From: a virus | Taxonomy: Duplodnaviria > Heunggongvirae > Uroviricota > Caudoviricetes | Virus record (IMG/VR): IMGVR_UViG_3300044259_000172 | Strand: one strand, 5' to 3' | DNA length: 51,946 nt | Shown: positions 5,545 to 27,723 of the stretch, piece by piece | Position numbering within the stretch: position 1 is the stretch's first letter | Layout: the number at the start of each line of letters is the position of its first letter | The notes under the pieces: generated by a model | Databases searched by the model: none | The model's input: the letters and a program-made list of their open reading frames with translations, nothing else | What the model was told of the DNA's origin: nothing | Program-made: the position numbers and the translations under genes

Positions 5545-5889
5545 TTATTTTTCGTCACTGTTATTTTGTTGAGATGAATTACTTTCATCTGAAGGAGATG
5601 GAGAATTATTACTAATTATTCCATTATCTATAAGAGATCTATCAAGGCCTGTTTCCTGATTTTTTCTATTGATATCATCCCACGTCGCAAATCCAATATA
5701 TGATGCTATAATAGAACCAGACATAGCAAAAAATGTACTAATCAGCGAAATGTATTGTTCTATATTTTGTGCATATAGAACAATATATGAAATTAAAATA
5801 TGATCGAAAATGAATGTGATCCAGGCCATCCATCTTCTATTTCTCCATTTTATTGAAATCTGCTCATGAGTTTCAGGTCCCTTTAACAT
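5545..5889 (-). CDS. Two-TM membrane protein, holin-like
   Basis: WRNRRWMAW followed by two hydrophobic helices and a polar C-tail. Confidence 0.45.
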   Translation of the reverse strand: MLKGPETHEQISIKWRNRRWMAWITFIFDHILISYIVLYAQNIEQYISLISTFFAMSGSIIASYIGFATWDDINRKNQETGLDRSLIDNGIISNNSPSPSDESNSSQQNNSDEK

Positions 5890-6764: not shown

Positions 6765-7292
6765 TTATGTTAAATCCTTATATTTTCTGTATGCTATAGA
6801 AACGCTTAAATCAGTAATATTATTTTCCATATCAGATCCTACATTGATTTCATTTACACTGATAGGAAATGATTCATATAAAAGATATGATTTTAAAACT
6901 GTATTATTTCTATTAAGTTGTGATATAATCATTGATCCTACAAAATCATCATAATAATTTAAAGTGTTTGTAGTATCATTGTAAGCCATATTCAACCATT
7001 CATCGAAAAACTTTTTTTCTCTATGATCAGCAGATAAATGAAACGTTAAATTAATTGGAGAGTAAGTAAACCCTAAAGGCATTTGTCTTCCAATATAACC
7101 ATCTGAATTATATGCCTGAGACTCTAAAGTTTTCCCTGGAAAACTTGCACTTTTACAATTTAGGCATATTCCCTCAAGATTATAAGAATCGATAGTAATA
7201 CCATCTGGAGGGGTCATCTCTAATGAATAAAGGTTTGGTCTCGCAAACCCCTTTGAATTTGTTATAGATGATAAAAAATCGCTTACTCTCAT
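6765..7292 (-). CDS. Tail tube initiator/tube-like protein (gp54-like)
   Basis: GFARPNLY, C.SASFPG, FFDEW, YESFPISV; gp19/gp54 fold signature. Confidence 0.8.
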   Translation of the reverse strand: MRVSDFLSSITNSKGFARPNLYSLEMTPPDGITIDSYNLEGICLNCKSASFPGKTLESQAYNSDGYIGRQMPLGFTYSPINLTFHLSADHREKKFFDEWLNMAYNDTTNTLNYYDDFVGSMIISQLNRNNTVLKSYLLYESFPISVNEINVGSDMENNITDLSVSIAYRKYKDLT

Positions 7293-7302
7293 ATTCTATT
7301 TA

Positions 7303-23396: not shown

Positions 23397-23597
23397 CTAT
23401 CGAGAAATTAGATTTTTAAGAGCTTTAGCGTCTGCGATGATTTTATCGAGTTTTGAGATTGCAGAATCTCTATAGATTGGAGATGTAGGATATGATCCAA
23501 ACCAACCTCCTGCAGAAGAAAAAGAATTCAACATTTTAATATCATATTCAAGACGATTTAAAGAACTTGAAATATCATTAGGTTGAATTTTCTTCAT
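23397..23597 (-). CDS. Hypothetical early protein
   Basis: Follows the promoter motif at 23652. Confidence 0.5.
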   Translation of the reverse strand: MKKIQPNDISSSLNRLEYDIKMLNSFSSAGGWFGSYPTSPIYRDSAISKLDKIIADAKALKNLISR

Positions 23598-23676
23598 TTT
23601 AAAATTTCCTAGTTGATTTGATAGATTATTAATATCAAAAGAATGAGCAATTGTAAATAGAGAAAATCGATAAAAA

Positions 23677-23752
23677 TGGTGGGTCCTGAAAGATTCAAAC
23701 TTTCGTCTTACCGGTTAAGAGCCGGATGTAATAGTCACTATACGAAAGACCC
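23677..23752 (-). tRNA. tRNA-Lys(CTT)
   Basis: Cloverleaf, loop CT-CTT-AA, encoded CCA. Confidence 0.85.
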
Positions 23753-23756
23753 AAAA

Positions 23757-23966
23757 TCGTGCCACCTGATAGGATTCGAACCAATCTTTTAATTGAGAAT
23801 AATAACTAGAAGCTGTTGCTAGGTATTCGAGGAGGTAATACGTGGTTAATTCCACACAGCAACTTTCCCTCCATCCATCTACCTTCTTACGCTTGTTACT
23901 AATCTAAATTAAAGCCTCTTTAAGTATCCATACATATTCTTGGCCAAGAATTTAGAGGCAGGCGAC
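23757..23966 (-). ncRNA. 210-nt tRNA-ended structured RNA
   Basis: Acceptor GTCGCCT/AGGTGGC, T arm with TTCGAAT, long central helix and pseudoknotted core; 3' end ACGA. Confidence 0.6.
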
Positions 23967-23975
23967 ATATAAAAT

Positions 23976-24233
23976 TTAATGAATATAAGCTAAAATAAGA
24001 TCGCGAACAATCTTTGGGGTTACAGCGAAATTGAATCTAATTTCATCCGATTTATAACCAAGTTGAGACATTGGAGTCCCACAACAATCACAAACCCATT
24101 CAATTTTTTCACCGACTTCAGTTTTCTTAAAATTGATAGGTTGTTTAAGATTTCCACCTTTAATATGAACATTTGTTTTACCAGCAGTCCATTGATATGT
24201 TTTATCTTCTACTTCAATATTTCTATAACTCAT
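23976..24233 (-). CDS. Hypothetical protein inside the tRNA array
   Basis: ORF with AAGGA RBS; CDCCG motif. Confidence 0.6.
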   Translation of the reverse strand: MSYRNIEVEDKTYQWTAGKTNVHIKGGNLKQPINFKKTEVGEKIEWVCDCCGTPMSQLGYKSDEIRFNFAVTPKIVRDLILAYIH

Positions 24234-24270: not shown

Positions 24271-24371
24271 TGATGGAGCCATAGAGGAATTGAACCTCTT
24301 CACCCGCCGCTAACATCCTCCAACTACATTGCCCTTTCTGACAGGCGGTTTCAGCGTAGTCGTCTGACCCC
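24271..24371 (-). ncRNA. 101-nt tmRNA-TLD-like RNA with alanine identity
   Basis: GGGGTCA/TGGCTCC acceptor with G3.U70 and A73; AGAGG-TTCAATT-CCTCT T arm; no D or anticodon arm. Confidence 0.6.
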
Positions 24372-25037: not shown

Positions 25038-25141
25038 TAAAGTGATTAGCCTTCCAGGCCGGATTCGAACCGACATACTCCAATTACTCGATTAACGACG
25101 CATTAGAAGTGCGTTGAGATACTGGAAGGCTAATCACTTTA
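25038..25141 (-). ncRNA. D-armless Arg(TCT) tRNA-like RNA inside a perfect 20-bp inverted repeat
   Basis: TAAAGTGATTAGCCTTCCAG repeat arms at 25038-25057 and 25122-25141; ACGCA-CTTCTAA-TGCGT; GTCGG-TTCGAAT-CCGGC. Confidence 0.6.
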
Positions 25142-25961: not shown

Positions 25962-26035
25962 TGGCGGACCATACGGGTATCGATCCCGTGATTTCACTTA
26001 GACAGAGTGACATGTTACCATTACATCAATGATCC
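25962..26035 (-). tRNA. tRNA-Asp(GTC)
   Basis: TCACT-CTGTCTA-AGTGA, G73-CCA. Confidence 0.85.
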
Positions 26036-26673
26036 AATAATTTTCTTCCTCTACTCCAACCTTCAGGAATGGGACCTTTAATTTTTTTAACTTCAATTCC
26101 ATTATTGATCCAAATAGAACCAAATTGAGAATTATTTTTTCCTATATATTTCCCTTTATGTGAATTAGACATTTTTAATTTTGTTTCCTCAGAATGGCTT
26201 TTACCCGTCCAATCAGGAGCTTTTAATTTACCTTCTTTATGAAGGATTTTATTACTTTCAGATAATCTAAGCGATGATCTTTTTCTAAATTCTAGATCTT
26301 TAGCTAATATTTTATTAGTTTTCATAGCAGCTTTTGATGATCTTAATTTATGAGATTCAGATCCATCATTAAGATAACCCCATCCACCTTTACCTCCTGG
26401 GCAAAGATTATAAACATCATTCCTTTTGAGGAATTCTTCGTTCACAATCTCAGCTTCTTTTTCATTCATTTCCTTTTCGGAAGAGCATTCAAACAAGATT
26501 TCTCTTTTAAAATTCTCAATTCCAAATTTAGAAATAGCTCTTTTAAGAAGCTTCCCAGAACCCATATAACCATCTTCTTTATTAGAAGTCATATGCTTTC
26601 CGATATAAATTTTACCATTTAGCAAGTTGGTAGTCTTGTAAATTAGGAAAAATTGATTTGATAAACCTGTCAT
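26026..26673 (-). CDS. GIY-YIG homing endonuclease (Seg-like) with NUMOD3
   Basis: IYKTTNLLNGKIYIGKH, YMGSG, YNL..GG.GG, HSEETKLKMS; start re-set to MTGLSN, 5 nt after TATAAATA (26679-26686). Confidence 0.9.
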   Translation of the reverse strand: MTGLSNQFFLIYKTTNLLNGKIYIGKHMTSNKEDGYMGSGKLLKRAISKFGIENFKREILFECSSEKEMNEKEAEIVNEEFLKRNDVYNLCPGGKGGWGYLNDGSESHKLRSSKAAMKTNKILAKDLEFRKRSSLRLSESNKILHKEGKLKAPDWTGKSHSEETKLKMSNSHKGKYIGKNNSQFGSIWINNGIEVKKIKGPIPEGWSRGRKLLDH

Positions 26674-26702
26674 ACAGATATTTATACAAATCAATTTTTC
26701 GA

Positions 26703-26775
26703 TGAGCGGGTGAAGGGAATCAAACCCTCTTCTTCGGCTTGGAAGGCCGAGGCACAATCAATATACCACACCAGC
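26703..26775 (-). tRNA. tRNA-Gly(TCC), CCA not fully encoded
   Basis: TCGGC-CTTCCAA-GCCGA, U73. Confidence 0.8.
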
Positions 26776-26840: not shown

Positions 26841-26911
26841 TGTTGCGGCGCCCGGAGTCGAACCGGAAAAAATTGGCTTATGAGACCAATCGGGAACCCT
26901 TCCTCACCGCA
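26841..26911 (-). tRNA. tRNA-Met(CAT) with a shortened D arm, CCA not fully encoded
   Basis: Loop CTCATAA, TGCGGTG/CGCCGCA acceptor, canonical T arm. Confidence 0.7.
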
Positions 26912-26920
26912 ATATTTTAT

Positions 26921-27648: not shown

Positions 27649-27723
27649 TGGCTGCTGAGATAGGAGTTGCACCTATAATCACCGCGTTAACGGCAGCTGC
27701 TTTACTAATTAGCACACTCAGCA
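27649..27723 (-). tRNA. Asn-bodied tRNA with an out-of-register anticodon loop (CGTTAAC)
   Basis: T1-A72 and G73 as in tRNA-Asn; GTT falls at positions 33-35 in the best stem. Confidence 0.55.

Follow-up and report, generated by a model that had tools for sequence, protein, structure and literature searches.

The stretch of DNA analyzed here, referred to as the window (51,946 nt), comes from a complete phage genome in IMG/VR, 154 kb in size and carrying terminal repeats, which belongs to an uncultured phage from sediment metagenomes. A match to the Gp23 capsid gene (E = 4e-120) indicated a T4-like affinity of this phage; related contigs encode UvsW, UvsY and T4-specific domains, and an ORF for a Seg-like GIY-YIG homing endonuclease is located inside the tRNA array. 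The array occupies the minus strand from 30806 to 23677 and comprises 27 tRNAs detected by ARAGORN together with extra weak tRNA matches to Rfam. At the end of the array and on its transcribed strand lies a 210-nt element, present as a single copy in the 154-kb genome and bordered by the ORF P0001 on one side and by tRNA-Lys(CUU) on the other (Table 1). The initial annotation had counted 5 nt between the terminal ACGA of the element and this tRNA; the count is four bases (UUUU). No plausible ORF was found in the 219-nt stretch holding the element. P0001, which carries a CDCC motif, and P0002 (66 aa) flank the element and tRNA-Lys (window 23397-24233), and neither ORF had a homologue among 5.8 billion proteins; judging by these sequences, the array end 23397-24233 is a lineage-specific segment. 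A search for promoters or terminators yielded nothing beyond shuffled expectation, and a search for antisense targets of the element within the phage genome yielded chance AT-rich matches only.

Table 1. Coordinates of the element, its predicted parts and its immediate neighbours in the window.
Feature	Window coordinates	Strand	RNA positions	Remarks
Whole 210-nt element	23757..23966	-		Basis: sequence, MFE fold, pair probabilities
Acceptor 5' strand, GUCGCCU	23960..23966	-	1-7	Pair probability 0.99
D-position arm, 46 nt	23914..23959	-	8-53	6-bp stem GCCUCU/AGAGGC (8-13/48-53)
Long irregular arm, 126 nt	23788..23913	-	54-179	Replaces the anticodon arm
GUUGCU	23858..23863	-	104-109	5' strand of the proposed crossing pairing
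AGCAAC	23815..23820	-	147-152	3' strand of the proposed crossing pairing
T arm, GAUUGG-UUCGAAU-CCUAUC	23768..23786	-	181-199	Pair probability 0.64
Acceptor 3' strand AGGUGGC + discriminator A + CGA	23757..23767	-		No CCA encoded
tRNA-Lys(CUU)	23677..23752	-		G1 lies 4 nt (UUUU) downstream of the element
P0001, orphan 85-aa ORF	23976..24233	-		Stop codon 9 nt upstream of element G1

Whereas CCA is encoded by 25 of the 27 ARAGORN tRNAs of the array, the element encodes none. The only two ARAGORN tRNAs sharing this lack, Met-CAU (26842-26914, minus strand) and Gly-UCC (26704-26775, minus strand), are both followed by the same trailer, ATCGAAAAA, and flank or overlap the Seg-like endonuclease ORF (26026-26757). 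Relevant to the element, and to the other tRNAs and tRNA-like RNAs of the array that lack CCA, is a 436-aa ORF of the phage in which a PolyA_pol/CCA-adding nucleotidyltransferase domain was recognized (PF01743, E = 1.4e-32; G000:C1:128679-129044, minus strand, outside the window). Genes for SmpB and for Ro/TROVE were sought in the phage, and neither was found.

The structure of the element was predicted with RNAfold, RNA position p corresponding to 23966-p+1 in window coordinates, and the MFE was -57.7 kcal/mol. All of the pairings listed in the initial annotation are present in the minus-strand sequence, and every nested one among them belongs to the MFE structure. The predicted fold is a four-way junction of acceptor stem, D-position arm, long arm and T arm with at most one unpaired junction base, and with so few unpaired bases the usual tertiary contacts of a tRNA core cannot form. 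The acceptor stem GUCGCCU/AGGUGGC (RNA 1-7/200-206) has seven base pairs including the wobbles U2.G and G4.U and, like the T loop UUCGAAU, can be read directly from the sequence as initially described. The T loop and the G53-C61 pair are canonical, the T stem AUUGG/CCUAU has one U.U mismatch, and a G8-C199 pair permits an 8/5 stack in place of 7/6. The acceptor is preceded by an AU-rich leader, AUUUUAUAU, with U at position -1, which resembles the leaders of the array's tRNAs. The stem of the D-position arm encloses AUUCUU/AAGAAU; the arm carries a hairpin made of the perfect 16-nt palindrome AUUCUUGGCCAAGAAU, which is unique in the genome, and a small GUA/UAC hairpin. The long arm is built from the helices UUUAAUU/AAUUAAA, AGA/UCU, UAGUAAC/GUUAUUA and AAGC/GCUU, followed by AGGUA/UACCU, GGAGG/CCUCC and GUGG/CCAC, and its tip, GUGG-AAUUAA-CCAC, is not a 7-nt anticodon loop. 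Pair probabilities were 0.88-1.00 for the main helices and 0.98 for the D-position stem, and 0.45-0.72 in the interior of the D-position arm.

The strength of this fold was compared with chance expectation at several levels. For the whole element z was -2.4, with 4 of 200 shuffles folding equally well, and about 2% of 206-nt windows in the 52-kb window matched its stability. The long arm alone gave z = -3.8, none of 300 shuffles being equally stable, while the D-position arm alone was not significant (z = -1.2) and its interior was poorly defined. The RNA-sense strand was 14 kcal/mol more stable than its complement. Scanning the window for T-arm motifs, defined as a 4-5 bp stem around UUCRANN, gave 24 occurrences on the minus strand, of which 22 fall within the array, against a single one on the plus strand. 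By chance, roughly 0.2 acceptor partners of 7 bp are expected per T arm within a distance of 400 nt, and by itself this partner is not significant. The modest z of the whole fold and the roughly 2% of equally stable windows count against a functional RNA, as do the T-stem mismatch and the fact that the T/acceptor module is left unscored by the tRNA covariance model; the stable long arm, the strand asymmetry, the near-confinement of T-arm motifs to the array strand and the likeness of the leader to those of the tRNAs support an RNA gene.

The initial annotation had also proposed a pseudoknotted core, in which GUUGCU pairs with AGCAAC across the nested helices. This complementarity exists and is affordable, the duplex being worth -6.1 kcal/mol and the freeing of both strands costing 1.5 kcal/mol, but it competes with the continuous stacking of the MFE structure and nothing else supports the crossing. 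The proposed pseudoknot, which rests on one 6-bp complementarity, is thus possible but not supported. The inner frame MDGGKVAVWN-stop is real and, as had been noted, not tag-like; it is not the sole frame, however, since an 18-codon frame with a UUG start follows GGAGG and reads (L)LCGINHVLPPRIPSNSF-stop. Neither of these two frames has a tag-like ending.

The element was then compared with known RNA families. No Rfam family matched it, either at gathering scores or at E <= 10; the latter search covered 23600-24100, where only the neighbouring tRNA-Lys matched RF00005, and included no match of the element to tRNA, tRNA-Sec, tmRNA, RNase P, group I intron, YrlA or ribozyme models. ARAGORN did not call it in default, tmRNA, intron or mitochondrial mode, and at the 80% threshold produced a poor 78-nt pseudo-tRNA from its 3' part (23838-23761). 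Like a canonical tRNA, the element has a 7-bp acceptor, a discriminator (A), a T arm with a UUCRANN loop (UUCGAAU with G53-C61, one U.U mismatch in the stem) and a position in a tRNA array. It differs in having neither a 5-bp anticodon stem with a 7-nt loop nor a 4-bp D stem with a G18G19 loop, the corresponding arms measuring 126 nt and 46 nt with 34 nt in place of the D loop, and it possesses neither the U8/N9 linker nor the core nucleotides of the variable region, which is reduced to 0-1 nt. The 13-bp acceptor/T stack and the 6-bp D-position stem recall the 8/5 architecture of tRNA-Sec. Identification of the element as a tRNA was rejected on account of its missing anticodon stem-loop, its aberrant core and the absence of any tRNA model match. 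An intron-bearing tRNA was likewise rejected, as the group I intron model RF00028 did not match the element at E <= 10, the intron mode of ARAGORN was negative as well, and the D arm is also aberrant. The element contains GGAGGGAAAGUUGC, which we take to resemble the CR-I/P4 motif of RNase P; an RNase P-like identity was discarded because no RNase P model matched.

The description of the topology as tmRNA-like did not hold up. Like tmRNA, the element has acceptor/T ends of tRNA type and an irregular long helix that leads to an inner region where a pseudoknot is possible; processing by RNase P, as we infer it for the element, is a further common trait. It differs in its D-position stem, in having no tag frame, and at position 3:70, which is C3-G204 and not G.U, the G.U pairs being at positions 2 and 4. 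At 210 nt it is also short, a typical tmRNA being about 260-400 nt long. The tmRNA mode of ARAGORN did not call the element even at the 80% threshold, and in the genome to which the window belongs ARAGORN found no tmRNA. Bacterial and phage Y-RNA-like RNAs such as YrlA are, like the element, noncoding and join a tRNA-like module to a long helix. The arrangement in YrlA is permuted, with the Ro-binding stem formed by the RNA ends and the tRNA-like part lying inside; the element is not permuted, has no Rfam YrlA match and belongs to a phage without a Ro/TROVE gene. In plant mitochondrial t-elements and in MALAT1 mascRNA, as here, a tRNA-like fold comes right after a coding region, and RNase P would set the 3' end of the upstream RNA; these are, however, eukaryotic or organellar, tRNA-sized and without a 126-nt arm, so that their likeness to the element is one of logic only.

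Relatives of the element were sought by several routes. A blastn search against 50,697 phage records gave no relative, and exact and gapped pattern scans of IMG/VR, JGI metagenomes and GTDB genomes gave chance matches only, in GC-rich or coding DNA. Seven related contigs (L002, L015, L017 and L019-L022), all with tRNA arrays, were reached via the downstream RNase H-like gene P0003, and no counterpart of the element was found in their arrays by BLAST or with R1, a covariance model of the element. The best R1 match was a tRNA-Phe-like gene with a similar acceptor (L017:5235-5312). Within the array itself no parent tRNA of the element was found. That no homologue was detected in any collection searched counts against a functional RNA, and the structure of the element is a predicted one.

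Sequence variation was available from a near-identical strain (run X3), in which about 1.6 kb were covered. All three differences in this region fell inside the element (Fisher p = 0.0016), and all three were A>G in the RNA sense, each converting an A-U to a G-U pair in a predicted stem and leaving the overall fold architecture unchanged. If transitions fall at random, three pair-preserving changes have p = 0.04, and if the changes are taken to be A>G, p = 0.2, the contig depth being 3. The pattern is compatible with a constraint on structure that leaves the sequence free, but as evidence it is weak; that the element changes faster than its flanks would agree with relaxed constraint as well. 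A diversity-generating retroelement, an idea suggested by the A-only changes, was rejected because the element is single-copy.

Two tRNA-shaped stable RNAs, RNA C and RNA D, which are cut from the tRNA cluster of T4-type phages, have been known since the 1970s. In T4 they sit at the 3' end of the tRNA cluster, and RNA C (species 1 RNA, rnaC) is 139 nt long. When RNA C was folded and four homologues were aligned, 15 covarying pairs were observed across 4 phages, and the fold was a four-way junction in which an acceptor-like closing stem lies beside a perfect T arm and is accompanied by two non-tRNA hairpins. By blastn, RNA C is present in 748 phage records; in phage EcS1 it lies between two tRNAs, and it is absent from Rfam. 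Both RNA C and RNA D are real RNAs whose role is unknown (PMC3014915, PMC9697503), and such T4 tRNA look-alikes can be conserved, abundant RNAs (PMC9697503).

Both the element and RNA C are encoded on the same strand as the tRNAs of a T4-type cluster, close to its 3' end or at it and with only a few bases between them and a tRNA, and both combine an acceptor-like stem and a canonical T arm with non-tRNA hairpins at the D and anticodon positions, an architecture that for the element comes from fold prediction. The T arm of RNA C, CCNGG-UUCGAAU-CCNGG, has the same T loop as the element, and the element is likewise without an anticodon and without an Rfam entry. They differ in length (139 versus 210 nt), in conservation (748 phage records versus an orphan) and in the acceptor, where RNA C keeps two U.U mismatches and the element forms 7-8 pairs, two of them G.U. 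R2, a covariance model for RNA C made from 4 rnaC homologues (identity to T4 rnaC by blastn, 79-100%), did not match the element at E <= 10; R1 did not match T4 RNA C and scored only 12.9 bits on the T arm of a relative. With no homology by covariance models in both directions, the element is to be viewed as an analogue of RNA C and not as a member of its family; on the predicted fold, T4 RNA C is its closest known counterpart, with the same architectural plan. The initial annotation was thus borne out in reading this locus as a noncoding RNA on the transcribed strand of the array, with a tRNA-like acceptor/T module that is placed, and preceded by a leader, as an RNase P substrate would be, and in finding no match to a described family. 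Its proposal of an undescribed class was not, given that the kind is known from T4 RNA C and RNA D and that a single orphan instance, and no family, is at hand.

Taken with the modelled fold and the analogy to T4, we place about even weight on the view that the element is a probable RNase P-processed, non-decoding, tRNA-shaped RNA gene, an analogue of T4 RNA C. Since the D and anticodon arms are replaced by arms of 46 and 126 nt and there is no anticodon loop, it cannot decode. The element would be transcribed with the array on the minus strand, and its acceptor stem, stacked on the T arm with its canonical loop, would present a substrate to RNase P, an enzyme that processes many non-tRNA substrates (PMC11143913). 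Cleavage 5' of G1 (23966) would free the element from the upstream ORF mRNA, and cleavage at G1 of tRNA-Lys would leave it with the short 3' trailer CGAUUUU, which exonucleases would trim; the CCA-adding-type nucleotidyltransferase of the phage could then add CCA. The analysis shows the sequence of the element, its predicted fold, its context and the lack of a match to any family, whereas expression, processing, stability and function are what we infer here; the most likely roles would be that of a stable RNA which mimics tRNA towards the factors that bind it, or acts as their decoy, and that of a punctuation mark in processing. Doubtful, as we judge it, is a further reading in which the element would be the first example to be seen of a separate class of large tRNA mimics made by phages; the acceptor/T module would serve as a handle for the processing and CCA-adding machinery and the 126-nt, possibly pseudoknotted arm would be a functional cargo. 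Such a cargo might, for example, divert a translation factor or a host defence nuclease directed at tRNAs, in the manner of a decoy or sponge, or the whole might be a chargeable RNA with a new role.

The main rival, a serious one although we consider it somewhat unlikely, is that the element is a decaying remnant: what was once a tRNA gene, or else spacer DNA, in an orphan part of the array that changes fast would fold by chance, be transcribed and cut merely as a by-product when the array is processed, and then be degraded. The element is an orphan in every database searched and both flanking ORFs are orphans too, so that the segment is presumably young or fast-turning, and decay would also explain why the element changes faster than its flanks, why its T stem is imperfect and its CCA missing where 25 of 27 tRNAs encode one, why ARAGORN at the 80% threshold draws a poor pseudo-tRNA at 23838-23761, and why the D-position arm is not significant and the overall z only -2.4. 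A chance fold is harder to reconcile with the z of -3.8 for the long arm, with the strand asymmetry of 14 kcal/mol, with pairs kept at all three strain differences and with a four-way junction that closes without unpaired bases and has an acceptor pair probability of 0.99; moreover, a dense phage genome would not usually contain 219 nt of junk, and the T4 look-alikes demonstrate that such RNAs can be conserved and abundant (PMC9697503). The tRNA-like module might also act as a cis-acting processing signal that recruits RNase P to set the 3' end of the P0001 mRNA and to help mature tRNA-Lys, the excised RNA having no role, which we regard as improbable. Its placement would suit such a signal, G1 being 9 nt past the P0001 stop and the end of the element 4 nt before tRNA-Lys, and the breadth of RNase P substrates (PMC11143913) as well as the tRNA-like structures that define mRNA ends in plant mitochondria (PMC1920247) offer parallels. 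For this purpose, however, an acceptor/T minihelix or an ordinary tRNA would suffice, the stable 126-nt arm would go unexplained, and the downstream tRNA-Lys already supplies an RNase P site.

Two further explanations were weighed. A small version of a tmRNA, or a tRNA-like RNA that is aminoacylated and has a pseudoknot or a messenger as its core, is suggested by the tmRNA-like order of acceptor and T arm, P2-like long helix and potential pseudoknot, by the permuted tmRNA that ARAGORN detects in the relative L002, and by the CCA-adding-type enzyme of the phage; we hold this to be very improbable in view of the C-G pair at 3:70, the lack of a tag-like frame end, a D-position stem where tmRNA has none, the absence of a tmRNA family match at E <= 10 and of an ARAGORN call at 80%, and a phage without SmpB. 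Hardly credible is a tRNA whose anticodon arm is interrupted by an intron, of group I or otherwise, and so is a small ribozyme embedded in the RNA. The tRNA-like ends around a large insert and the propensity of phage tRNA arrays to host mobile elements, here the Seg-like endonuclease, would speak for such an interruption, but the insert of at most 126 nt is well below the smallest self-splicing group I introns, which are about 200 nt, ARAGORN's intron mode was negative, no intron or ribozyme family matched at E <= 10, and, as the D arm is non-canonical as well, removing one insert restores no tRNA.

As a tRNA-shaped RNA gene, the element would stand beside T4 RNA C and RNA D, whose function has been unassigned for fifty years, as a much larger and sequence-unrelated example, and its phage encodes, in addition, an enzyme of the CCA-adding type, a tRNA of the UAA-suppressor type and further tRNA-shaped RNAs. 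Should RNAs of this kind be made and have a function, they would amount to an overlooked level of translation control or of conflict between phage and host, an idea that a single orphan element cannot test on its own.

Several other loci in the window and in the relatives bear on tRNA-like genes. On the minus strand at 25038-25141 there is a 104-nt RNA in which a 20-bp terminal stem encloses a canonical T arm and an inner hairpin (-44.7 kcal/mol, z = -7.7; weak Rfam tRNA match, 32 bits); on this predicted fold it is another non-decoding tRNA-shaped RNA of the same array, which fits a phage making several such RNAs. The 101-nt stretch at 24271-24371 (minus strand), which adjoins P0001 on its upstream side, has the ends GGGGUCA...UGGCUCC with G3.U70, the discriminator A73 and a perfect T arm, AGAGG-UUCAAUU-CCUCU, and its fold is no more stable than that of shuffles (z = 0.15); by sequence it could be an alanine-identity tRNA-like domain. 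A tRNA at 27649-27723 (minus strand) has the anticodon UUA and would read the UAA stop codon. Among the relatives, L021 and L022 need TAG=Q for translation of the RNase H-like gene, and L017 carries a tRNA with a CUA anticodon, so recoding or suppression of stop codons seems, from these sequences, to be common in this phage group. In L002, the permuted (two-piece) tmRNA called by ARAGORN is located downstream of the RNase H-like gene (6919-7298, plus strand) and has the tag ANDEQFALAA. The closest complete relative, L015, contains at 5548-5640 (plus strand) an unannotated class II tRNA-Ser(UGA)-like gene, undetected by ARAGORN, whose D stem has 6 bp and whose D loop has 4 nt; the gene encodes CCA and is preceded by a stem-closed spacer of ~95 nt.
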